DNA of 61,592 nt from Candidatus Heimdallarchaeota archaeon (GCA_020353515.1 CP070695.1:4128221-4189812); one strand, 5' to 3'; counted from the first letter of the stretch, positions 27,953 to 40,859 are shown. The notes: generated from the letters alone by a model not told the origin. Program-made: numbers and translations.

Positions 27953-29434
27953 TCAGACCAGCTTGTGTGTAAAATGGTAAAAACCACTTGTTTCGTATAG
28001 AAATAATACAATGATGACTACAGCAATCAGGCTGAGTCCAAAACAAAAAAGAAATAGTCCAATAATTCCCGCAGGTCCCAAGCTGACAAAGTATCCTCCA
28101 ACAACAGCCCCCATGATGTTTCCCGAAGCCATAAGCGATTGAGTAAAGCCCATCTCACGTCCCCGTTGTCCCGATTTGGTTACATCACTGACTAGACCCA
28201 GAGCAGCTGAAATAAAACAAGAGGCAGAGAGACCGTAAACTATAATCATTAAGACAACAAGGATGTGAGGAATCGGGAGGGGATATTCAGGGATAAAATT
28301 CAAGGAAATTGTATCTGTTAATGATAATGGGTTTCTTATCATATTAGACAATTCAGAAAGTTCCCATACTTGTATTCCATTCACAGATTTATAATCAAGG
28401 ATGGAAGCAAGTGTTACTAAAAGCATACTAGTGCCAACAATTCCAATTACCAAGAAGGGTTTTCGTCCCACGTTATCAGAAAGTCTACCTAATATTGGTT
28501 GCATTATTCCCATTACACAAATCGCAAGAAAGCCTATTATCGCAATAGCAAATCCCACCTCTGTAACGAGGTCGAATATTATAGTGGGTGCTACAAAAGT
28601 GCTTGCTCCTATGAGTGTTGTATAAGCTAACCATGCAATGGCGAATTTTCGAAACTGTTTGTCTTGAAGACTTTCTAGCATGGTTTTAAACGGATTTATG
28701 TCAATTTCTGAATCTGTTACAGTTTGAGTGAAATCTGTTAGCAATATATCAGCTTCTTCATCTAGAACTAAATCTTTACGAGGCTCAAAGAACCTAAACG
28801 CATAAATTGACGTGGCCAAGAACATTATGATCGCAAAGAAGAAGAATGAGTCCTCTTTTAAGATCGTCCATGAAATTAAACCAAATGGATTCCCAATAGC
28901 TCCCCCAGCAGCTTTTGCTAAATAGAATTTTCCCATTGTCTCACCATGCCTTTCATCAGGGGATAAATCTGCAATTACTGCTAATATTGGTCCTGAAATC
29001 ATAGCAGCAGCTAATCCTTTCAACCCATTCGAGAGGACTAAAACTAGAAAACTAAATGGGAGAGTAGCATAGTAAGGATACATAATGGGGAAAATAAGAA
29101 AGGAAATACCTGCTAATGCTGTTCCAATAATTAAAAATGGCCGTCGTCCAAAACGATCACTAATCATTCCGAAAAATGATGCAGTTGACAATGAAACGAA
29201 ATAGTAACTAGCTACAATTATTGCGGTTTCGACCCCCACCATTGTCGTTCCACTTTTTTCGCCCAATTCCCGAAGGTATAGGGGTAAACCAAACGCTGCA
29301 GAAGCAAAAGCACATTCTGTTACGGCTACAGCAATATAAAGAATCATACTTTGCTTCTTTAACAAAAAGGTAATGGGTTGTCCAATGAAATGCAGGGTGT
29401 CTCTAGTGTATTTTGATATTAAACGACGTGGCAC
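27953..29434 (-). CDS. MFS transporter
   Basis: Motif A GMISDRFGRR and GRLSDNVGRK; 12 TM helices. Confidence 0.92.
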   Translation of the reverse strand: MPRRLISKYTRDTLHFIGQPITFLLKKQSMILYIAVAVTECAFASAAFGLPLYLRELGEKSGTTMVGVETAIIVASYYFVSLSTASFFGMISDRFGRRPFLIIGTALAGISFLIFPIMYPYYATLPFSFLVLVLSNGLKGLAAAMISGPILAVIADLSPDERHGETMGKFYLAKAAGGAIGNPFGLISWTILKEDSFFFFAIIMFLATSIYAFRFFEPRKDLVLDEEADILLTDFTQTVTDSEIDINPFKTMLESLQDKQFRKFAIAWLAYTTLIGASTFVAPTIIFDLVTEVGFAIAIIGFLAICVMGIMQPILGRLSDNVGRKPFLVIGIVGTSMLLVTLASILDYKSVNGIQVWELSELSNMIRNPLSLTDTISLNFIPEYPLPIPHILVVLMIIVYGLSASCFISAALGLVSDVTKSGQRGREMGFTQSLMASGNIMGAVVGGYFVSLGPAGIIGLFLFCFGLSLIAVVIIVLFLYETSGFYHFTHKLV

Positions 29435-29696: not shown

Positions 29697-30599
29697 ATGA
29701 AAATTTCGCTTGTCGGACTAAGTGGCTGCGGTAAAACATCGATTTATTCGACCACATTAGGTGGAATGGCTCCTATGGATGTCAAGGACCTAGGACCAAC
29801 AGTTATGTATGAAGTTAAGTCCCATAATTATTTAGGCCTTCAAATATCTCTTTGGGATTTTGGGGGACAGGAGAAATACAGGCAATCTTATCTGGAAACA
29901 CCGAAACTTCTAGCAAATACAACAATTCTTGTCTTTGTACTGGATCTACATCACCCAGAAGATTTTAAGAAAGCTGATAATTACTTTAAAGAGGTTTTCT
30001 CTGCTATTAAGGAAAGTGGGGGAGACCCCCGTATAATAATTTTCTATCACAAGTATGATACCGAGGAATATCCAAAGGAACAGCTTGAAGGAAATTTAGA
30101 CAAAGCCAGAGAACTACCATTTATCAGTGAGATCGACCCTGAATCTTTCATTACATCTATTTATCGTCAAGAAGAATTAAGTGAGGTATTTCGTCAGATC
30201 CTGATTTCAGACTTCGATGAATTAAGGGACAGCGTTGAACATGCCCAAAAACACCTTATGAAATTAAATTCAAAAATCATTGTCAGCGATGTGAATGGGA
30301 ATGTTATCACTCACAGTATCAAGGGATTTTCCACAGGAATCCAACTTCGTGAGGATTTACGTGATTATATTCTTTCTTGTAATGTTCTGCGGGAGAATTT
30401 CCTCACCAGTGATTCAGCTTCTTTTTCTGCCATCTCAGACACAAAGAAATTGAAATTACACATTTTTAGCTTTGTTCTAGCTGTACTCATTATGGTAGAT
30501 GAGGGTGCAGCAATTGATCCTCCAGAAGATATCGAAGCTTTGTTAACAGATATGAAAGTTTTTGCAGAATTAATTATCGATGCTAGCAGAGAAGAATAA
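29697..30599 (+). CDS. Rag/Arf-like small GTPase with C-terminal roadblock/longin-like domain
   Basis: GLSGCGKT, PT, WDFGGQ, HKYD, TSI; tail IIVSDVNGNVI. Confidence 0.88.
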   Translation: MKISLVGLSGCGKTSIYSTTLGGMAPMDVKDLGPTVMYEVKSHNYLGLQISLWDFGGQEKYRQSYLETPKLLANTTILVFVLDLHHPEDFKKADNYFKEVFSAIKESGGDPRIIIFYHKYDTEEYPKEQLEGNLDKARELPFISEIDPESFITSIYRQEELSEVFRQILISDFDELRDSVEHAQKHLMKLNSKIIVSDVNGNVITHSIKGFSTGIQLREDLRDYILSCNVLRENFLTSDSASFSAISDTKKLKLHIFSFVLAVLIMVDEGAAIDPPEDIEALLTDMKVFAELIIDASREE

Positions 30600-30633: not shown

Positions 30634-32109
30634 TTATTTTTGTAAGAGCTCTGCTACAGATACTTTTTTCGTGAGAAGCTTACCTTCCGTATCAGTTAGA
30701 CTCACCATATATTCACTATCGTCATTAAAACGTGGGAATTCGAAATCTAGTGCCTCTGCAGGGAACCATTCACGAATGGTAGTCTCCCAGTTATGACTTT
30801 CAAATAACTCTCCTGCCAACAGAGTTATCCGAACTTGAACTCGTTCTAGAACCTTTCCACTGCGATTTTGTAGAGTAACTTGGATGCTACGACCTTCATC
30901 TACGAGATTTGTGCTTTGTATGCGAACTAACCTGCGTTTTCTAATCCCACTGACTCCTTTTTCTACCAAAATTTCTCTTGATGGAAGAGGTTGACGTTCA
31001 GCGGGTAGAGTTGAGGGGACTTGGAATGCAAATGATCGACGCCGATTGACGGTGTATAGCTGGACCTTTTTTAGATTTGCAAGTCTCAATACTGGTGTGA
31101 GTTGTTTTACTGTAATTGGTTGAAGTTTGATATAACCGTTGTCAGCAGCATCTTGAAGGATTTCTAATCCTAGTCCTGTACGAACGAGTACGGTATTGTA
31201 TCCCTCAGGAGCTCCAACTGAGCCAACACTAATGTCCGCATTCTCACTAGAAAAGTCAACACAATAATGGCAGGAGCTAGCTCGCAATCTGTCCATTTCT
31301 TTTACTGGATGACTGATTGACTCTCCGCTCTCTTGAATCATATGAAATTTCCCTTTAGAAATTGTCATTTTTTCAATATCTTCCATGGGGATTTTATCGA
31401 CTTCCTCGACAAAATGGCGTAATCTGTCGTAAGAAAAAGCATCCATACAAAAAAGTCCAATTTTTAGAACTGAACTACGCATGAATAATCGAACAAGTCC
31501 ATATGGAGAACTTTGCATCTTCTTTACAGCGTCAATATTGCAAGGACATCCTACAAAAGCAATAGAATTCAATCCAGATTTAATAGCTTCAAGAAGTTTT
31601 CCCACTGCTGAACTTTGACTGTATATGGACCCTGAAGAAGCCAATATTTGATCTTCTTCAGTAGCAATGATAGGTTTTGGTTTCCAATACTCAATTTCAT
31701 CTTTTTTTGTTAAGACAGCTCCATCAATCATTCCCTCACGTAATAGATAGATCAGTAAGCTGGTCACTACTCCTCCATCTTGGCCAGTAACTTCTGAGAG
31801 AAGACTTTTTGCTCGAAAAGCTTCAATGAAATTACCAATTAGCTGAGGAACAGTAGTCTTGGTCTTGGGACATTGGTGGATACAGACCCCACAAGCAGTA
31901 CATTTTCCTGTCAAGCGTGGACGATCATTAATCATTTCTAACGCGTTTTCGACACATGAAGCAACACAAGCCCCACAGGCACTACATAATCCAGTATCTA
32001 TAACTTGTTTCTTCAAAGTGGCAAATTTTGCTTCTTTACTCCCCTGTAACTTACGCTTAGACAATCGATAACTAATTAACTGGTCTTCTTCTTGGTTAAT
32101 TTCCGTCAT
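30634..32109 (-). CDS. FrhB/FdhB-family F420-interacting flavo-FeS protein with N-terminal 2x[4Fe-4S] and an extra C-terminal beta domain
   Basis: CSACGACVASC, CTACGVCIHQCP, GQDGGVVT, VGCPC, IGLFC, CHYCVD, ADISVG; ~120-aa C-terminal extension. Confidence 0.88.
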   Translation of the reverse strand: MTEINQEEDQLISYRLSKRKLQGSKEAKFATLKKQVIDTGLCSACGACVASCVENALEMINDRPRLTGKCTACGVCIHQCPKTKTTVPQLIGNFIEAFRAKSLLSEVTGQDGGVVTSLLIYLLREGMIDGAVLTKKDEIEYWKPKPIIATEEDQILASSGSIYSQSSAVGKLLEAIKSGLNSIAFVGCPCNIDAVKKMQSSPYGLVRLFMRSSVLKIGLFCMDAFSYDRLRHFVEEVDKIPMEDIEKMTISKGKFHMIQESGESISHPVKEMDRLRASSCHYCVDFSSENADISVGSVGAPEGYNTVLVRTGLGLEILQDAADNGYIKLQPITVKQLTPVLRLANLKKVQLYTVNRRRSFAFQVPSTLPAERQPLPSREILVEKGVSGIRKRRLVRIQSTNLVDEGRSIQVTLQNRSGKVLERVQVRITLLAGELFESHNWETTIREWFPAEALDFEFPRFNDDSEYMVSLTDTEGKLLTKKVSVAELLQK

Positions 32110-32146
32110 CTTTTTTCATCCATATACTAGTTAGTTGTCTGAATCA

Positions 32147-32578
32147 TTAATCATTGTGGGAGAACTCTTCTGGAGGCGAAGAATGAGGCTCTAATGAACT
32201 GAAAGCAGCAATTAAGTCATGTGTAGTAATAATTCCTACCAATTCAAAAGTATCGGGATCTTTCACAAGAACTCTCTTGATATTATGTTTATACATCAAC
32301 AGTAAGACATCTTTAATTGTTTCTCTTAAAGAAATCGTAATAAGGTTGGTTGTAGCTATGTCCTTTGCTATTACTTCACAAGGATCTTGACAGTTTAAAA
32401 TGACTCTCTCAATAATGTCTCGTTTTGTAATAATTCCTATCGGTTCCTGATCCTGATGTACTAAGACTGAACCAATATGATTTTCGGCCATTAATTGAGC
32501 AACCTTTTCAAGACTGTCATTGGCAGTCACAGCAACTATTTCTTTTTTCATTAGATCCTTAACTCTGGTTGAATACAC
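32147..32578 (-). CDS. Stand-alone CBS-pair protein
   Basis: VKDLM, IGSVLV, GIITKRDI, IKRVLV, GIITTHDL. Confidence 0.9.
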   Translation of the reverse strand: MYSTRVKDLMKKEIVAVTANDSLEKVAQLMAENHIGSVLVHQDQEPIGIITKRDIIERVILNCQDPCEVIAKDIATTNLITISLRETIKDVLLLMYKHNIKRVLVKDPDTFELVGIITTHDLIAAFSSLEPHSSPPEEFSHND

Positions 32579-32589
32579 AATATAACACC

Positions 32590-33624
32590 CTAACCTATGA
32601 TTCTTTTTACTCTTATGGTTCCTTTTTCGTCCTCAACCTTTAGGAAATATATTATTCCACTTGAATCAGCTAGTTCAAATTCAATTAAAACATCCTGATT
32701 TGGCGCCCATTCCTTTATCTCTGAAATAAGGATGTCCTTACCAAAAAAGCCCTGCGATTCATATATTTTGAGAAGAGCGTTCACAATTAGATTTGAACTG
32801 CTATTGCGAACTGTTACTTGAACCCGTTTATCATCTTCAGAATGTTTTATATTTGTAACTCTTACACGTTTTGGTTCGGGAGCTAGAGTTACATCTGGTT
32901 TTTCTTTACTAATTTCATGTTTGTGACTTGTTGGTATTGAAAATCGTAATCGGGGTTTTTTAGCGGGTTTCTGTATTTGTGATTCATGAGTAGGTGTAGT
33001 TGATGCTCCATTTGTGTCTCCTATGACACTTTCTTCCAATTGACCTTCAAGTTTAGTTATAGGCATTTTCGGAATTAACGAAATACATAATCTAATAAGC
33101 TCGTGTTCAATATCATCGGATTTCTTCTTCAGAAATTCTTCAACGTCCGAATTTTCCTGTTTTTTCAGGTGAAGTTCTACAAGAAAACATAAATTTTCTC
33201 CAATAGAACCTTGTATTCTGGTCTTTAACTCGTGTAATATTTCTTGAGCTATAAAAGAGACTGTAGAAGGAGCTTTTACAATTAAAACAAATCTTTCTGC
33301 TTGCCATTTCTTCGATTCCATTCCCTCTCGTCTTTTAATTCTTCTAGTTTCACATAAAATGAGAGTTCCACAGTAGATAACACCTCCCAATTCAAGATCT
33401 ATTGAAATAAACTTGTCTGTTTCTAGAAATCTATCTTGGTGCCACCAAATACTGTGTATGGAAATAATCTCTTTTTCGTTCTTATTATTCAATAATTGCT
33501 TAGGGTATGAAAAGAGGGGAACATGACCTTGAACTTCGTCAAAAAAGTAGAGAAAAAAGCCATAAGAATCATCTATATTTGATTGGTCAATATCTGTAAA
33601 TGCAGAAAGGTCCCCATATCTCAT
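32590..33624 (-). CDS. Longin/uDENN-like protein A with shared C-terminal beta domain
   Basis: GFFLYFFDEVQGHVPLFSYP N-terminus (FD-x3-G-x5/6-YP, NPRL2/uDENN-like); C-domain aligns with its neighbours. Confidence 0.65.
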   Translation of the reverse strand: MRYGDLSAFTDIDQSNIDDSYGFFLYFFDEVQGHVPLFSYPKQLLNNKNEKEIISIHSIWWHQDRFLETDKFISIDLELGGVIYCGTLILCETRRIKRREGMESKKWQAERFVLIVKAPSTVSFIAQEILHELKTRIQGSIGENLCFLVELHLKKQENSDVEEFLKKKSDDIEHELIRLCISLIPKMPITKLEGQLEESVIGDTNGASTTPTHESQIQKPAKKPRLRFSIPTSHKHEISKEKPDVTLAPEPKRVRVTNIKHSEDDKRVQVTVRNSSSNLIVNALLKIYESQGFFGKDILISEIKEWAPNQDVLIEFELADSSGIIYFLKVEDEKGTIRVKRIIG

Positions 33625-33746
33625 ATCTAATTTTTTCTCCTTTTATTTGAGATTAGACTATTTTTGCATGACTTTAAGACTTTTCTATAACACTTTTCAT
33701 CGTTTTTTATACTGATTTTATCTTTCCTGAGAATCGCAAAGGTTAG

Positions 33747-34685
33747 TTAGACATTGTTTATACCAACCTTAAGAGACTTAATGTCGATTGTTGTTTTCTT
33801 ACTACTGATTATAATTAAGTAATTTTCAACCATTTCCATTCTGGGAAACTCTAAAATTAAATCTTCTTTGAAAGGCCACTCCTCAAGCTCTTGTTCCCAA
33901 ATGGGTTCACTAAAAAATTCAGTTCTTTTTGATACTTGAATTTTAACATCCTTTAGATTCTCACTCTGATTGACTAATACTACCATTATTCCCTGATCAT
34001 TGGTTTCTGATAACAAAACTCGCATTGTAATTTTTTGCTTAAATAAATCGTGAGCACAATGACTTGTTTCTATTGGAATCTTTGATGAATCGGCTTGGTT
34101 TGGGATTATCTCTGGAGTAAATGTTTCAAACTTCTGATTAACGCGAATCACAAATTCCTTCCATGTAGTTTTCAATATCTGATCGATTTTTGCTGTTTGT
34201 TTCACTAATTCTTTATATTCTCGCTTTCTAATTGGATTTGCTTCTAATTCTTCACACTTATACAACAATTCGAGACCTGAACCGAGATTCGATTCTAATG
34301 TGGTTTTAAAATCAATAAAAGCGTTCATTGGAATGGGATTAATATCTTTCCAATTTTTTATAACGATACCATAAATTGGGGTGTCTTCTGCTGTTGTCCC
34401 TTCTTGTGAGGTCGTTTGAAGCTGAAAAGCTGAATAAACGAATTCAGAAAATTTCAGGTCAATACGAAGAGGCACATTTTCTATTTTCCATACACAGTGT
34501 GTCTTCAGAATGTTAATCTCGTTCTTGTCATGCTGTAATTTTGAAGGATAAGAAAAGAGGATCTGAAGACCATTAGTAGTATCAAAGGAACATAAAAAAA
34601 ACCCTAATAAACCCACTTTTGACTGAAAAGTTGGCTTTTCTGGTGTTGTTTTGATATTCGTTTCAAAAAAAGGATCGATATTCAT
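33747..34685 (-). CDS. Longin/uDENN-like protein B with shared C-terminal beta domain (paralog of A)
   Basis: GFFLCSFDTTNGLQILFSYP; KNE..I...H..W..IDL shared with A. Confidence 0.65.
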   Translation of the reverse strand: MNIDPFFETNIKTTPEKPTFQSKVGLLGFFLCSFDTTNGLQILFSYPSKLQHDKNEINILKTHCVWKIENVPLRIDLKFSEFVYSAFQLQTTSQEGTTAEDTPIYGIVIKNWKDINPIPMNAFIDFKTTLESNLGSGLELLYKCEELEANPIRKREYKELVKQTAKIDQILKTTWKEFVIRVNQKFETFTPEIIPNQADSSKIPIETSHCAHDLFKQKITMRVLLSETNDQGIMVVLVNQSENLKDVKIQVSKRTEFFSEPIWEQELEEWPFKEDLILEFPRMEMVENYLIIISSKKTTIDIKSLKVGINNV

Positions 34686-35072
34686 CGTTTCTCCTTACAA
34701 TTTTCATTGATTGAAGAAAATAAGTCTTTTTGGAAAAGTTTTCAGTTGAGGACGATAACTCTCTTCAACTTCAAAAGTTTTCGCAAATACCATGTAAGTA
34801 TTTTTTATAAAACTAATAATCAATAAGAGTCTTTATACTGATCTATTGTTTTTTTTGGACTTTTCTATAAAAGCTAAACGACTAAATAGAGAAATTCCTT
34901 TTTAGACATTAGGAAAAGTCAAGTTTTTGAAATAAAGAAATAACCTCATTAGATTCAAAATCGTAGGAAAATTCTTTCTTTCTTGAAACATAATTTTTTA
35001 GTATATCTACATGAAATCACCCTAATAGAAATAAATAATCAAATAACTCTCATAAACTTGGAGAAGAATATT

Positions 35073-36905
35073 TTGAGTTCACAGTTATGGGATCTCGTCG
35101 TTGTAGGAGGAGGGCCAGCGGGACTTTCCGGTGCAATTAGGGCTGCAGAGTTAGGTCTTCATGTTCTTGTTCTCGAAGCGCGTTCTGGAATAGCTACTGC
35201 AGGCAGTATGGCTGTAGATGGCTATCCTGGCTTTTTCAGCATAACCCGTCAAGAACTATTAGATAAAATGGCCAAGCAAGCAAAGTACCATGCAACAATA
35301 AATTATGCAGAAAAAGTGAGTAGACTTGAATTAAAAGATCCTATTAAGCGGGTATATACCCAAGTTACAAGAGGAGAATTCTTTACTGAAGAATTCAAGT
35401 ACAACTGTAGGGCAGTATTAATTGCAACAGGTCTTCAGCCTAAAAAGCTTGATATCCCAGGAGAGGGAAAATTCAAGGATAAAGGAGTCTATTATTCTCT
35501 TCCTGATGGAGACTACACCGATAAAAATGTTGCTATCATAGGACACACATCCTGGGCTGTCCGAAATGCTCTACATTATGATGCCATAGGAGCACATGTG
35601 TACCTGATTACTTCACGAGATTCGTTTGATGCTCATCCAGCACTCATGAGAAAATTAAATGAAAGTTTTGTTGAAGTTCTTTATTCACATGAAGCATTAT
35701 ATTTCGAGGGCACTGATAAGTTAACAAAAACACGTCTTAAAAGTGCAGATGGAAAACAATTCTCTATTTTAGCAGAAATGGTACTCATTCTGAGTAGTAA
35801 GAATACTAACCGTGAGTTATTTCAAGATGCAGGATTAACAACTACCCCTCAAGGAAGAATTATTGTAGAATCCTCCAATCAAGATACAAATATCCCTGGT
35901 GTATTTGCAGCGGGTAGCGCAACAAGAGGGGACTCAATAGTGGGTGTTGGGGCCGCAGAAGGCATTAAAGCCGCAGAAGAAATTTCAAGGTACCTAACTA
36001 AGCTTGAAGAGAAAGAATCCCTTGCAGAAAAAGAGAAAGAAACACCTATGCTTGTTGAGAGGTTCACTGAAGGAAGATGTGTCATCATTGATAAAAAAGA
36101 TTTATCTCCAGAAATAGTTAAGTGGGTAGTTAAGGCACCTTTAGTTGCAGAAAAAACTCAACCAGGACAGTTTGTCATTCTCCGAGTAACTCAGGATGGA
36201 GAACGAATCCCATTAACTGTTGCTGATAATGATAAAGAAAAAGGTACAATTACTCTAATTTTTCAAAAGATTGGAAAGAGTACCAAGCTTATGGGGACGA
36301 TGAAAGCTGGCGATCACATTCTTAATCTCTTGGGGCCCTTGGGAAGACCTGTGAAAATTGAGAAATGGGGTACCGTCGCTGTTCTTGGTGGTGGTTGCGG
36401 TGTTGCTCCAGTATTGCCTAAAACCAAAGCTTTGAAAGAAAAAGGAAACTATGTAGTAAGTATTATTTCAGCCAGAACATCTCCACTTTTAATATGTCAA
36501 GAAGAGATGCGGGAGGCGAGTAATGAGCTTCATATTGCAACTGATGACGGGACAGAGGGTCATCACGGATTTGGACTTGATCTCTTAAAGCGCTTTGTTG
36601 AAGAAGGAAGACATTTTGATCATGTTGTAGCAGTTGGGCCAATTCCAATGATGAAGTTTACCTGTGCTTTCACTAAAGAACATAATATTCCAACAACTGT
36701 TAGTCTAGCACCTATAATGGTCGATGGTACTGGAATGTGTGGGGCTTGCCGTGTAACTGTTGGTGGTGAGGTTAAGTTCGCCTGTGTTGATGGTCCTAAT
36801 TTTGATGGATTAAAGGTGGATTTTGAAGAATTGACACTTAGATCAAGGGCTTATCTTTATGAGGAGCGTATTTCCAGTGGGAAAATGGCTCGAGAAAAAC
36901 CATAG
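35073..36905 (+). CDS. nfnA: Fusion of a CxxC-less thioredoxin-reductase-like flavoprotein and NfnA/SudB
   Basis: N-half GGGPAG, ATG, GVYYSLPDG, TNIPGVFAAGS; C-half PGQFVILR, ERIPLT, GPLG, MVDGTGMCGAC, CVDGP; likely TTG start at 35073 after GGAG. Confidence 0.85.
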   Translation: MSSQLWDLVVVGGGPAGLSGAIRAAELGLHVLVLEARSGIATAGSMAVDGYPGFFSITRQELLDKMAKQAKYHATINYAEKVSRLELKDPIKRVYTQVTRGEFFTEEFKYNCRAVLIATGLQPKKLDIPGEGKFKDKGVYYSLPDGDYTDKNVAIIGHTSWAVRNALHYDAIGAHVYLITSRDSFDAHPALMRKLNESFVEVLYSHEALYFEGTDKLTKTRLKSADGKQFSILAEMVLILSSKNTNRELFQDAGLTTTPQGRIIVESSNQDTNIPGVFAAGSATRGDSIVGVGAAEGIKAAEEISRYLTKLEEKESLAEKEKETPMLVERFTEGRCVIIDKKDLSPEIVKWVVKAPLVAEKTQPGQFVILRVTQDGERIPLTVADNDKEKGTITLIFQKIGKSTKLMGTMKAGDHILNLLGPLGRPVKIEKWGTVAVLGGGCGVAPVLPKTKALKEKGNYVVSIISARTSPLLICQEEMREASNELHIATDDGTEGHHGFGLDLLKRFVEEGRHFDHVVAVGPIPMMKFTCAFTKEHNIPTTVSLAPIMVDGTGMCGACRVTVGGEVKFACVDGPNFDGLKVDFEELTLRSRAYLYEERISSGKMAREKP

Positions 36906-36919
36906 AAGGAATAAAAGCG

Positions 36920-38323
36920 ATGTCTAAACGAAAACAGACAAAGAAACAACGAATTCGTATGCAGATTCAAGATTCAGGTGAACGAATTCGAAATTTTGAA
37001 GAAGTTGCCCTAGGATTTACTGAAGAGGAGGCAATAGAGGAAGCTTCGCGGTGCCTGCAATGTAAGCGTCCACGTTGTATTCAGGGTTGTCCTGTAAGTG
37101 TACGTATACCTGAATTTATTCTCAAATTGAAAGAAGGAGATGTTGATTCTGCAAAAGAAATTATCCTTTCAACCAATAGTCTACCTGCTATAACAGGACG
37201 TGTCTGTCCCCAAGAAAACCAATGTCAAGAGTTTTGTATCCACCCCAATGCTATTAGTATTGGTGCATTGGAAAGATACGTTGCAGATCATGGAAAACGT
37301 CCTGAAATCAAAACTTCCAAGAAATTACAATCCAAAATTGCAATAATTGGATCTGGTCCATCTGGATTGACTTGTGCAGCTGATCTAGCTAATTATGGTC
37401 ATGAAGTGGTATTATACGAGGCACTACATGAGTATGGTGGAGTATTGACTTATGGGATTCCAGAATTCCGAATGCCTAAACAGATTGTAAATGAGGAGGT
37501 TGAGTATGTACAAAGTTTAGGGGTTCGATTAGAAAAGGATATTCTCATAGGAAAGACCATAACTATTGATGAACTTTTAGATGAGTTCAAATTTGATGCA
37601 GTGTATATTGCTTCTGGGGCAGGAACACCAAACTTTTTGAAAATACCTGGAGAGAATTTAAAAGGAGTTTATTCCGCTAATGAATATTTAACTCGTGTAA
37701 ACCTCCTTAAAGGATATGATTTTCCCGAATATGATACTCCCGTATCAGTAGGAGAAAAAGTTGCAGTCATTGGAGCTGGTAACGTTGCAATGGATGCTGC
37801 TCGAACCTCACTCCGACTAGGAGCACGTGAAGTAGATATTATTTATCGTCGTACCGAAGGAGAATGTCCAGCCCGATTAGAGGAGATTATTCATGCAAAA
37901 GAAGAGGGAGTAGTAATCGGAGAATTGATATCCCCAGTAGAAATTCTTGGAGATAAAAAAGGGAATGTTATCGGTTTGAAGTGTTTACGGATGCAATTAG
38001 GTGAGAAGGATGATTCTGGTCGTAGAAGACCCATCCCCATACCTAATACAGAATTTATCTTCCCCGTTGACACAGTAATCATTGCTATTGGTCAAAAACC
38101 AAACCAATTAATAGCTCAAACCACACCAGGTCTCGAATCCACTAGGTGGGGTACATTGGTGCATAAGGAAGAAACAGGAGAAACAACACGAGAAAAAGTT
38201 TACACTGGGGGCGATGTCGCTACTGGAGCTGCTACAGTCATCCTTGCAATGGAAGCTGGTCGAAAAGCAGCAAAGGCAATACATGAGGTGATATTAGGGA
38301 AAACAATTGCAATTGAGAATTAA
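36920..38323 (+). CDS. nfnB: NfnB/SudA (GltD-like large subunit of NADH-dependent reduced ferredoxin:NADP+ oxidoreductase)
   Basis: CLQCKRPRCIQGCP, GRVCPQENQC, GSGPSG, GAGNVAMD, YRR, GGD; adjacent to nfnA. Confidence 0.9.
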   Translation: MSKRKQTKKQRIRMQIQDSGERIRNFEEVALGFTEEEAIEEASRCLQCKRPRCIQGCPVSVRIPEFILKLKEGDVDSAKEIILSTNSLPAITGRVCPQENQCQEFCIHPNAISIGALERYVADHGKRPEIKTSKKLQSKIAIIGSGPSGLTCAADLANYGHEVVLYEALHEYGGVLTYGIPEFRMPKQIVNEEVEYVQSLGVRLEKDILIGKTITIDELLDEFKFDAVYIASGAGTPNFLKIPGENLKGVYSANEYLTRVNLLKGYDFPEYDTPVSVGEKVAVIGAGNVAMDAARTSLRLGAREVDIIYRRTEGECPARLEEIIHAKEEGVVIGELISPVEILGDKKGNVIGLKCLRMQLGEKDDSGRRRPIPIPNTEFIFPVDTVIIAIGQKPNQLIAQTTPGLESTRWGTLVHKEETGETTREKVYTGGDVATGAATVILAMEAGRKAAKAIHEVILGKTIAIEN

Positions 38324-38938: not shown

Positions 38939-39853
38939 ATGCGAGTTCGTACTGCCGTTCGTGCTGGAAGCTGGTATTCTGGTCAGAAAGATCGTTTATT
39001 AAATGAGATTAATGCAATGTACATGCATAAAATAGGGCCAGGTAGAAAACCTCTGGCATTAGATCAAAGAAAAGATGTTAAGAATATCCTAGGAGTAGTT
39101 TCTCCCCATGCAGGATATGCATGTTCTGCACCGACGGCTGCTCATGGTTTTATAGCGTTAGCTGAGGATCGAAAAGAAATCAATACTGTGATATTACTTG
39201 GTAATAAACACACACCTTATGGGCCAGAAATCTCTGTTGCTCCATTTGATGCTTGGGAGACACCTCTTGGCCAAGTTCCTGTGAATATGTCCTTATTGAA
39301 TAGAATAATAGACAATAAACAACAATTACCTGATCGTTTAAGCAAGATATTAGATTTTGATGATACTGCTCATATGGATGAACACTCAATAGAATTACAA
39401 ATTCCTTTTCTTCAAGATATTTATTCAGATTTTAAAATTGCCCCAATAGGAATTGGTCGTCTCCCAACAAACATCACCCGAACTTTTGGCTATTATTTAG
39501 CTGAAATGATAAAAGAAGAAGGAATTGGAGATTCATCTGTTGCAATAGCTAGTACAGATATGACTCACGGTAACTATTCCCCCGTGTTAAATCATGATGA
39601 AGTCTCTTCACTTGATAAATTGGCTTTAACACCAATGTTAAATCGCGACCCTGAGGCGTTAGAAGAGGCGGTACAGAAAAATAATATATCTATGTGCGGC
39701 GTAGGGCCTGTAAAAGTTCTTCTTTCATTTGCGGAAAAGTTAGGAGCTAAATCAGCCAAATTGCTGAATTATTCGACCAGTGGATTGACTTGTGGGCCAC
39801 GAAGTTCAGTGGTTGGTTATGCATCAGTTGCAGTTATGAAAAGTGGAGATTGA
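38939..39853 (+). CDS. amrB: MEMO1 / AmmeMemoRadiSam protein B
   Basis: AGSWY, PHAGY, EHSIELQIPF, STDMTH, SMCG, VVGYAS. Confidence 0.92.
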   Translation: MRVRTAVRAGSWYSGQKDRLLNEINAMYMHKIGPGRKPLALDQRKDVKNILGVVSPHAGYACSAPTAAHGFIALAEDRKEINTVILLGNKHTPYGPEISVAPFDAWETPLGQVPVNMSLLNRIIDNKQQLPDRLSKILDFDDTAHMDEHSIELQIPFLQDIYSDFKIAPIGIGRLPTNITRTFGYYLAEMIKEEGIGDSSVAIASTDMTHGNYSPVLNHDEVSSLDKLALTPMLNRDPEALEEAVQKNNISMCGVGPVKVLLSFAEKLGAKSAKLLNYSTSGLTCGPRSSVVGYASVAVMKSGD

Positions 39854-40859
39854 GAACTTCACGCTATCTGAAGGACGTAGACATTTGGAAAACAAAATTC
39901 TTGTAGTAGGAAAAGTTTGTTTTCACTTAGACTTTTCCATCTCTGATGATTTTTCTTTAATGACTTCTGAGGAGGAAAGAGAACCTTCTACCAGTGCAAC
40001 TGATGTTAAGCGAGTACTTAACGGAATGGGTGCAAATATTGCTTATGGCTTAGCAATTTTAGGGTCATATCCAATCATTGTATCACAGGTAGGATATGAT
40101 TTCAAATGGTTTCATCATCCTCATTTGGAAAAACTTGGAATTGACGTGAGACCATTTATTCACCCTGAAAAAGAAACTGCTTGCTTCTATAAAATCAAAG
40201 ACAATCAAAACAAGAGTCTGATAATTTCCCAGGAAAACTCTTACCATTTCTTTGCAGAAAGAAATCTAGAAGATCAGCTTGAGTCAAACGAATTTCAGGC
40301 GCTTAGAGCTGTTTTTATTGGAACAGGAAAGGTTGAGGCTGATACAAAATTCATTTCCAAAGTTTATGATCTGAATAAAAGACTTCCTGTTATCTATTCA
40401 CCTGACACAAATATTCAAGAATTGACCAAGTGGCGATTGACACAAATCTTTGATAAGATTTCAATCTTAATCTGCACAGAAGACGAATTGAAAATGATCG
40501 AAGAACGGATGAAACAAACATGCGATGAGATATTAGCAAATTCGCAAAGGTTGAAATATATTATTTCGATGATTCAGCGATCAAGAATCATTATCTTTTC
40601 TAAGGAATTTAAGGTGAAAGTTTCCGAAGGTCCAGCAGATGAAGTACTTTCTCAAGAATTTTGGTATGACGCGTTTCGGGCTGGTGTTATTTATGGTGTT
40701 TCTTTGAAGAAACCAATTGAAGAAGCTGCGAAACTTGGTTCTGCTTTAGCATCATATGCTGTTGAAACTCGTGAGAACCAACAATATTCACCTAGTTTAG
40801 AACAGGTTTCACTGCGAGCTTTTGAAGTAAAGACTTCTCGGAAAGAAATATCCAACTAG
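39843..40859 (+). CDS. PfkB/ribokinase-family protein with altered anion-hole motif
   Basis: GMGANIAYGLAILG, VGYDF; FWYDAFRAG in place of GAGDAF. Confidence 0.75.
   Translation: MEIENFTLSEGRRHLENKILVVGKVCFHLDFSISDDFSLMTSEEEREPSTSATDVKRVLNGMGANIAYGLAILGSYPIIVSQVGYDFKWFHHPHLEKLGIDVRPFIHPEKETACFYKIKDNQNKSLIISQENSYHFFAERNLEDQLESNEFQALRAVFIGTGKVEADTKFISKVYDLNKRLPVIYSPDTNIQELTKWRLTQIFDKISILICTEDELKMIEERMKQTCDEILANSQRLKYIISMIQRSRIIIFSKEFKVKVSEGPADEVLSQEFWYDAFRAGVIYGVSLKKPIEEAAKLGSALASYAVETRENQQYSPSLEQVSLRAFEVKTSRKEISN

Follow-up and report, generated by a model that had tools for sequence, protein, structure and literature searches.

Longins related to eukaryotic regulators of small GTPases are already known in Asgard archaea. 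NPRL2-like longins and FLCN-like DENN proteins were described there (Liu et al., bioRxiv 10.1101/2020.10.19.343400), and longins carrying a GP motif and an arginine finger were reported in Heimdallarchaeia; in NPRL2, FLCN, SMCR8 and C9orf72 the GP motif lies beside the arginine finger (PMC12290439). Asgard archaea possess many Rag, Arf and Rab-like GTPases as well as longin and roadblock proteins, and both the pairing of regulators with GTPases and the nature of the sensed signals constitute an open problem. Asgard GTPases are generally not found in operons with longins and this lack of operons hampers matching (PMC10933270); the question of which GTPases are the partners of the Asgard longins resembling GTPase-activating proteins (GAPs) was raised in PMC12290439. 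The present analysis concerns a locus of five genes contained in a stretch of 61,592 nucleotides (hereafter the window), i.e., positions 4128221-4189812 of the closed 4.94-Mb genome of Candidatus Heimdallarchaeota archaeon (GCA_020353515.1, CP070695.1). Two longin paralogs (A and B), a stand-alone CBS pair and a flavoprotein of the FrhB/FdhB family are encoded there beside a Rag-family GTPase (Rag). A literature search found no description of such an Asgard longin-CBS-FrhB-Rag arrangement. The original prediction, made from the window alone, that the arrangement was undescribed is thus upheld for the arrangement, which appears to be new, and not for its components, since NPRL2/FLCN-like Asgard longins had already been published in general terms (PMC12290439).

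The genes of A, B, the CBS pair and FrhB follow one another in the same orientation on the minus strand, separated by 122, 11 and 37 nucleotides; the predicted set of four co-oriented genes is borne out by the open reading frames. The Rag gene is convergent with the FrhB gene, and 34 nucleotides separate their stop codons. The closest homologs of the window proteins bear the names Hodarchaeales, Heimdallarchaeota or Promethearchaeota, i.e., Asgard archaea. The five genes are as follows (lengths in amino acids, aa).

33747-34685, minus strand: gene A (P0001), 312 aa, with a longin domain at ~22-115, a helical region at ~120-188, a disordered linker and a C-terminal domain (C-dom) at 218-312.
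32590-33624, minus strand: gene B (P0002), 344 aa, with a longin domain at ~20-119, helices at 120-200, a disordered linker at 198-248 and a C-dom at 250-344.
32147-32578, minus strand: stand-alone CBS pair (P0003), 143 aa, GTG start.
30634-32109, minus strand: FrhB/FdhB-family flavoprotein (P0004), 491 aa, with a 2x[4Fe-4S] region at 36-83, FrhB_N at 101-173, FrhB_C at 181-333 and a C-dom at ~397-491.
29697-30599, plus strand: Gtr1/RagA-family GTPase (P0005), 300 aa, with a C-terminal domain of ~110 aa.

It is highly probable that the genes of A, B, the CBS protein, the enzyme and Rag form one functional module. Our judgement is evenly balanced on the reading that best explains the whole, namely that A/B is a longin regulator of Rag (likely a GAP), to which a redox enzyme is docked by C-dom and a CBS protein is added, the whole setting the state of Rag. 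The strongest part of the case is the comparative evidence, i.e., the shared C-terminal domain and the conservation of the locus.

A, B and FrhB all end in one beta-sandwich of ~95 aa, the C-dom, encoded at the following positions.

33750-34034, minus strand: C-dom of A (Ig-like beta-sandwich).
32593-32877, minus strand: C-dom of B.
30637-30921, minus strand: C-dom of FrhB.

A domain of this size ending three of the four proteins had been predicted, and it is recovered both by pairwise comparison (4e-5 for B vs. FrhB and 2e-5 for A vs. FrhB) and by a profile search of the 4.94-Mb genome, in which only A, B and FrhB are retrieved (1.7e-32, 4e-31 and 2.5e-27, respectively), the next best match being at 0.08. 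In an alignment of 21 sequences of the three families, the residues N, F, W and F are invariant. Among 1.84 billion representative proteins, the profile has only 74 matches at E<=1e-3, which makes C-dom a rare domain. These proteins have A/B-like lengths (~300-390 aa) or are short and possibly fragmentary, plus a few large multi-repeat proteins with weak and partial matches. When the matches were scanned against Pfam, there were four FrhB fusions, the protein P0287 described below, and five proteins of 249-450 aa without Pfam family. The shape of C-dom resembles common Ig-like sandwiches, i.e., FlaG/FlaF, PDE-delta, DUF3244 and the Fn3-like domains of GH2/GH3 enzymes. The assignment of a function to B from a Foldseek search with the whole model was rejected: the matches are dominated by C-dom and are such common beta-sandwiches (FlaG/FlaF, PDE-delta, GH3 Fn3-like). 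By its restricted distribution, C-dom would be a docking module private to the system and mediating its assembly.

The arrangement A-B-CBS-FrhB with a convergent Rag recurs elsewhere: on a Heimdall contig of 3.16 Mb, where B is 62% identical, and in relatives further removed, at 47%. The adjacency of A and B is kept in relatives. In two relatives (L004 and L005), an operon occupies the place of the FrhB gene, and its GltD-like subunit (Fer4_20 + Pyr_redox_2, 578 aa) ends in C-dom (1.4e-17); Rag is still near, ~5 kb beyond the inserted operon. In L004 this tagged subunit is part of a large NuoEFG-like/molybdopterin operon. The same alternation is found in 20 other genomes of the same genus: about half have FrhB::C-dom (492-509 aa) and about half (about 9 of the 20) have GltD-like::C-dom (581-588 aa). 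Most of these genomes have three C-dom genes, located within ~4 kb of each other where positions are listed.

Further away, in a protein labelled Helarchaeota (P0287, 641 aa), B is fused to C-dom and to four CBS domains; hhalign relates this protein to the B family at 4.7e-27. Its locus also encodes a CBS protein, a C-dom-bearing protein of 385 aa and, adjacent to P0287, a Rag ortholog (1.9e-138). One direction is shared by the genes of CBS, B, FrhB::C-dom, Rag and X::C-dom (X being an additional protein that carries C-dom) in Freyarchaeum (L017), in Freyrarchaeum (L022) and in another family (L024); in L017 an unrelated peptidase gene stands between B and FrhB. In Jordarchaeales (L018), CBS and B are together and FrhB::C-dom is ~7 kb off; L023 has FrhB::C-dom in convergent orientation to Rag and X::C-dom. 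In Freyr-/Jordarchaeia and other families, the Rag concerned is the ortholog of P0005 (1e-127 to 1e-145). Upon 301 Asgard genomes, the B family is present in 96 and C-dom in 102, and the families occupied are the same. The remaining families searched yielded neither; among them are three of the window's own class (0/29, 0/11 and 0/11) and two large ones (0/76 and 0/19).

An enzyme exchanged while its C-dom is kept, and a B::C-dom::CBS4 fusion, support a physical module. Chance clustering was rejected, as four mutually independent lines speak against it: synteny, the private C-dom, the exchange of the enzyme and the fusion.

Outside Hodarchaeales, Rag is followed by protein X (385-398 aa), which ends in C-dom: L017:5070-6242 (minus strand), L024:13725-14921 (plus strand) and L013:4491-5648 (minus strand). 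X matches no Pfam family. Its N-terminal 300 aa appear arrestin/Vps26-like by language-model features alone (0.92), which is a lead. X was considered as an ortholog of A and this was rejected, since hhalign finds no alignment to the A family outside C-dom. In Freyarchaeum, two proteins of ~425 aa with C-terminal V4R domains (TRAPPC3/Bet3 superfamily) are encoded directly downstream of Rag-X (L017:2246-4864, minus strand); a 416-aa protein without Pfam family stands at the place of the V4R proteins in L013.

P0005 belongs to the Gtr1/RagA family (PF04670, 1.4e-22, 80.7 bits vs. a cut-off of 22). It has the P-loop GLSGCGKT, the DFGGQ motif and the Rag-type HKYD motif; GxxxxGKT, DFGGQ and HKYD are invariant in 43 homologs. 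Rag is far better conserved than A or B (93% vs. ~75% identity in the closest relatives), and its homologs with ~50% identity carry the names Loki-, Hel-, Odin- and Freyrarchaeota. A second Rag cluster is located ~2.4 kb past the 300-aa Rag gene (window 23521-27327, minus strand). It comprises two Gtr1_RagA GTPases, at 26251-27327 (5.8e-36) and 23521-24450 (1.3e-33), and, between them, a weak Gtr1-like protein (25293-26312, 7.8e-4) and a 265-aa protein without Pfam family. These GTPases could be substrates of A/B too.

The binding of Rag was examined by complex prediction with A(20-192), B(15-200), full-length Rag and GTP, Rag being the scored partner, along with three controls. The A/B-Rag-GTP complex obtains a score of 0.77 vs. 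0.45 for the best control; the same mark is reached by 58 of 80 solved complexes and by 2 of 110 mismatched pairs. At least 86% of the contacts agree between runs and the predicted local distance difference test (pLDDT) of the partner is at least 87. Residues 28-35 and 99-104 of B are predicted to contact Rag at 9-10 (P-loop) and at 58-61 (switch II, after DFGG; Q58-Y61), while residues 36-40 of A are placed on the interswitch and switch II region.

The predicted paralogy of A and B is confirmed: they align over their full length (BLASTP 5e-13, 24% identity) and both have the motif FD-x3-G-x4-FSYP (F34-P47 in A, F28-P41 in B). All the source labels of the B-family proteins read "hypothetical". 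The AlphaFold2 models, built on alignments of 49 and 52 sequences, have a mean pLDDT of ~72 and consist of a confident N-terminal beta-beta-alpha-beta-beta-beta-alpha domain, 3-4 helices, a disordered linker and a seven-strand beta-sandwich. According to DSSP, the order of the elements is E26-35, E39-46, helices, E73-76, E82-89, E104-112 and H120-134 for A, and E22-29, E33-40, helices, E75-79, E82-92, E109-119 and H120-144 for B.

In a structural search against representatives, A and B match many solved longins with Z of 9-11 over 115-148 residues. The best matches of B are 8fw5_B of GATOR1 (Z 10.2, 136 aligned residues, root mean square deviation 3.4), 6nzd_H of the folliculin complex (10.1), Sec22 (9.8) and the SEA complex (9.6). 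Those of A are a Lokiarchaeota longin (10.9), 6ulg_N of FLCN-FNIP2 (10.8), Lst4 (10.7), C9orf72-SMCR8 (10.6), GATOR1 (10.6), the folliculin complex (10.3) and the SEA complex (10.1). The identities of the NPRL2, FLCN, FNIP2 and C9orf72 chains were deduced from chain lengths; 8fw5_B is in this way probably NPRL2. An Atlas shape search returned the eukaryotic NPR2 family (template modelling score ~0.4) and a Heimdall cluster with the Folliculin family in 23% of its members. From these models, the longin fold of the N-terminal domains is secure; their affinity to GAP longins is suggestive only. The prediction of longin/uDENN paralogs is consequently retained for the longin fold, which is nearest to GAP-type longins, and not for a DENN protein: the models of A and B have no DENN core, the longin being followed by helices, a linker and the Ig-like domain instead, and DENND1A is aligned solely via its N-terminal longin part (6ekk_A residues 2-146).

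Two loops of B are of importance for the putative catalytic site.

33523-33540, minus strand: D29-H34 of B (D-E-x-x-G-H), loop running from beta1 to the start of beta2.
33319-33345, minus strand: R94-M102 of B, beta4-beta5 loop, candidate arginine-finger loop.

Invariance was established on B-type proteins from at least five Asgard families, with names including Hodarchaeales, Freyr-, Jord- and Helarchaeota. The invariant residues of the N-terminal domain are E30, G33, L37, P41, H57, W60, E78, R95, K97, R99, G101, E110 and P119. E30-x-x-G33-H34 covers the beta1-beta2 loop and the start of beta2, i.e., the position of the published GP motif, in a register judged from secondary structure only. 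R95-x-K97-x-R99-x-G101, invariant phylum-wide, constitutes the beta4-beta5 loop; the equivalent loop of A keeps the glycine and has no arginine. On the basis of the model, the R95/R99 loop is a candidate arginine finger (cf. NPRL2 R78 and FLCN R164). An arginine loop in B and none in A fits a pair of catalytic and non-catalytic subunits; B is presumed to be the catalytic subunit and A its non-catalytic partner, with a FNIP/NPRL3-like role.

The CBS protein matches PF00571 in two stretches (4.2e-27), in agreement with the stand-alone pair of tandem CBS domains that had been predicted. The predicted FrhB/FdhB protein is equally recognized by PF04422 (7.2e-21, 74.6 bits) and PF04432 (2.1e-43, 148.2 bits), in addition to its N-terminal 2x[4Fe-4S] region; its scores stay under the equivalog cut-offs for FrhB and FpoF and under the subfamily cut-off for PRK09325, and it is the sole FrhB-family gene of the genome. 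CofH (419.6 bits), CofD (301.6) and CofE (287.5) are all above their cut-offs in the genome, and by this gene content the use of F420 by the organism is plausible. The GltD-type substitute found in relatives indicates that the requirement is for a hydride-carrier-oxidising flavin/iron-sulfur module and not for F420 as such.

Two further redox genes are divergent upstream of A (window 34983-38323, plus strand). They encode a 640-aa NfnA-like protein, in which a Pyr_redox_2 region is fused to FAD_binding_6, NAD_binding_1 and DHODB_Fe-S_bind, and a 467-aa NfnB/GltD-like protein (Fer4_20 + Pyr_redox_2). The same pair is located upstream of A in L004, L006 and L007; the redox neighbourhood is thus conserved.

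Taken together, these data lead to a proposed mechanism in which: (i) A and B would pair up as a longin heterodimer, which would bind and regulate the adjacent Rag-family GTPase, most likely as a GAP in the manner of NPRL2-NPRL3 (GATOR1) or FLCN-FNIP; (ii) the E-x-x-G-H and R-x-K-x-R-x-G loops of B would face the P-loop and switch II of Rag, A being non-catalytic; (iii) C-dom would hold together A, B and a hydride-carrier-oxidising flavin/iron-sulfur enzyme, which would be of FrhB type here, plausibly with F420, and of GltD type with NAD(P)H in sister genomes; (iv) the CBS protein would join as an adenylate-binding regulatory subunit; (v) the assembly would set the GTP/GDP state of Rag according to cellular redox and energy charge. 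The parts of this mechanism are not equally firm. That A/B regulates the neighbouring Rag is fairly probable; that it acts specifically as a GAP falls just short of an even chance; that the enzyme and the CBS protein are inputs rather than outputs is proposed tentatively, the balance leaning somewhat against it. The identities of the ligands and the direction of signal flow are putative in the same way. The original prediction had a metabolic-sensing complex acting on a small GTPase: the predicted binding of Rag, the enzyme swap and the CBS fusion speak in its favour, and its redox input needs to be widened, as it is not specifically F420 (a GltD-like NAD(P)H flavoprotein takes the place of FrhB in roughly half of the close relatives). 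The longin fold was found, the cluster is conserved in several Asgard classes and binding of A/B to Rag is predicted above controls; on these three points, nothing was obtained that contradicts the prediction.

Several results weigh against the proposed mechanism. At the level of sequence families, the Pfam scan of A and B gives no family at E<=1 except one unrelated weak match, the NCBIfam scan gives no match, and the NPR2 (PF06218), Folliculin (PF11704) and FNIP families are not matched by A or B. The B-family profile finds nothing relevant among the PDB sequences, with one spurious match at E=1.7. As for structure, non-GAP longins (Sec22, VAMP7) are within 1 Z unit of GAP longins for A/B, and the position of the GP motif reads G-H-x-P in B and G-L in A. 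As for the complex, the score is still 0.45 when B is swapped for an unrelated protein, and the score may reflect the model's memory of, or likeness to, solved GATOR1-Rag and FLCN-FNIP-Rag structures. Rag probably does not strictly need B, given that the Rag family also occurs at ~50% identity in proteins named Loki-, Hel- and Odinarchaeota and that several large Asgard families searched gave no B; in the window, moreover, the convergent Rag gene is not co-transcribed with A-B-CBS-FrhB. Lastly, no CofG is above cut-off in the genome, its model weakly matching the CofH locus (36.6 bits), so that the synthesis of Fo may be incomplete or divergent.

Three other explanations were weighed. The flow could be reversed, Rag and the longin pair controlling the redox enzyme by GTP-dependent recruitment, assembly or gating, with the CBS protein adding adenylate control and the enzyme being the output. 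C-dom indeed tags whichever electron-input flavoprotein occupies the locus, the tagged GltD-like subunit of L004 sits in its large NuoEFG-like/molybdopterin operon, NfnA-like and NfnB-like genes are divergently upstream in the window and in relatives, and the eukaryotic Rag GTPases work by recruiting effectors. On the contrary, the model turns the invariant arginine loop of B towards the nucleotide pocket, which points to a complex regulating the GTPase; both could hold, and the reversed flow is considered unlikely. The arginine loop bears equally on the idea that the A/B dimer is a guanine nucleotide exchange factor (GEF) or a nucleotide-independent scaffold for Rag, as are Ragulator, TRAPP and Mon1-Ccz1. 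This loop, R-x-K-x-R-x-G, is invariant in B and lost in A, i.e., a catalytic/non-catalytic asymmetry, it is predicted to lie at the P-loop and switch II of Rag, and the top-ranked solved matches are chains of GAP complexes. A GEF or scaffold role is thereby held to be quite improbable, despite the fact that most longin/roadblock platforms are GEFs or scaffolds (PMC12290439), that the strict GP motif is absent (G-H in B, G-L in A) and that the Z values of non-GAP longins are so close.

The remaining explanation dispenses with the GTPase: A, B, CBS and the flavoprotein would be a metabolic enzyme complex, the longin-like domains having a purely structural role and Rag being an incidental neighbour. 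The convergent orientation of Rag in the window, with its 34 nucleotides between stop codons, would be natural in that case, as would the fact that no sequence family ties A or B to GTPase regulators. This is nevertheless very unlikely in view of the relatives: the orthologous Rag is co-directional between FrhB::C-dom and X::C-dom in Freyr-/Jordarchaeia and other families, it stays adjacent in the Helarchaeota-labelled fusion locus, and, where an inserted operon stands in for FrhB, it is still found on the far side at a distance of ~5 kb. Binding of Rag predicted above controls also stands against it. The regulation of Rag by A/B, with docked enzyme and CBS protein, is therefore the reading kept below.

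With regard to expression, an AAGGAG-type ribosome-binding site precedes A and also B, and a 13-mer is repeated ahead of these two genes.

34858-34870, minus strand: TTATAGAAAAGTC, 173 nucleotides upstream of A.
33678-33690, minus strand: TTATAGAAAAGTC, second copy, 54 nucleotides upstream of B, inside the 122-nucleotide A-B gap.

The 13-mer has 3 copies in the 4.94-Mb genome vs. 2 for a reversed control pattern, i.e., a weak significance; as far as such counts go, it may be a shared promoter, operator or regulator site. On one flank, a gene for a major facilitator superfamily (MFS) transporter (window 27953-29434, minus strand) is divergent from Rag; on the other flank there are a Memo-like gene and a PfkB-kinase gene (window 38939-40859, plus strand). 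The positions of all these genes are kept in L003, L004 and L006. Elsewhere in the genome, a profile search with PF06218 found nothing, and the sole signal of PF11704 is sub-threshold (21.5 bits), in a 451-aa open reading frame far from the locus (G000:C1:680440-680601), which may correspond to the published FLCN-type class of Asgard longins.

The locus provides a defined and conserved test set: one Rag, a catalytic longin candidate with a point-mutable arginine loop, a partner longin, a CBS protein and a redox enzyme. The role of the new ~95-aa docking domain is open to testing by deletion. If the proposed mechanism is true, this would be the first prokaryotic Rag-GAP system, and it would give hints on what the pre-eukaryotic Rag pathway sensed. 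It is conceivable, though rather unlikely, that the locus is a surviving relative of the ancestral Rag control module from which GATOR1 and FLCN-FNIP descend; in it, a redox enzyme and a CBS adenylate sensor would be hard-wired to the longin GAP by means of the private docking domain. Were this so, Rag signalling would have begun as redox/energy-charge sensing in anaerobic Asgard archaea, before lysosomal amino-acid sensing.

Compared with known systems, A and B resemble the published Asgard NPRL2-like and FLCN/SMCR8-type longins, which are close to eukaryotic GAP longins and are candidate Rag/Arf regulators; for the latter, however, no cognate GTPase was named and no conserved operon with CBS and redox genes was described (Liu et al.; PMC12290439). 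With GATOR1 (NPRL2-NPRL3-DEPDC5, a GAP for RagA/B), the locus shares two paralogous longins, one of them with a (candidate) catalytic arginine, and a (presumed) target of the Gtr1/RagA family. The best solved match of B belongs to that complex (8fw5_B), and the presence of the arginine loop in B and not in A mirrors NPRL2 vs. NPRL3. Unlike in GATOR1, there is no match to Pfam NPR2/NPR3 at the locus, DEPDC5 is absent, and an Ig-like C-dom stands in place of the NPRL C-terminal domain; moreover, the partners are here a CBS protein and a redox enzyme, and not GATOR2, KICSTOR or amino-acid sensors.

FLCN-FNIP (Lst7-Lst4, a GAP for RagC/D which binds AMPK) is a longin heterodimer acting on Rag, as is proposed for A/B, and its chains are matched by A (6ulg_N and the Lst4 longin) and by B (6nzd_H). 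However, A and B have neither DENN domains nor a Pfam Folliculin match, and their GP motif reads G-H or G-L. FNIP binds AMPK, whose gamma subunit has four CBS domains; this recalls the CBS link observed here and is an analogy only. The CBS pair of the window and the four-CBS fusion of the Helarchaeota-labelled variant are comparable to AMPK gamma and other CBS (Bateman) adenylate sensors, but there is no kinase at the locus and the adenylate ligand is here putative. In MglA-MglB, a bacterial Ras-like GTPase with a roadblock GAP, a prokaryotic small GTPase is also encoded beside a regulator of the roadblock/longin superfamily. MglB is a roadblock homodimer without arginine finger and, in contrast to the present locus, MglA-MglB has neither metabolic enzyme or CBS partners nor a docking domain. 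On evidence that is entirely in silico, the locus appears to be a prokaryotic precursor of the sensing of nutrients and energy in eukaryotes, and one that is testable.

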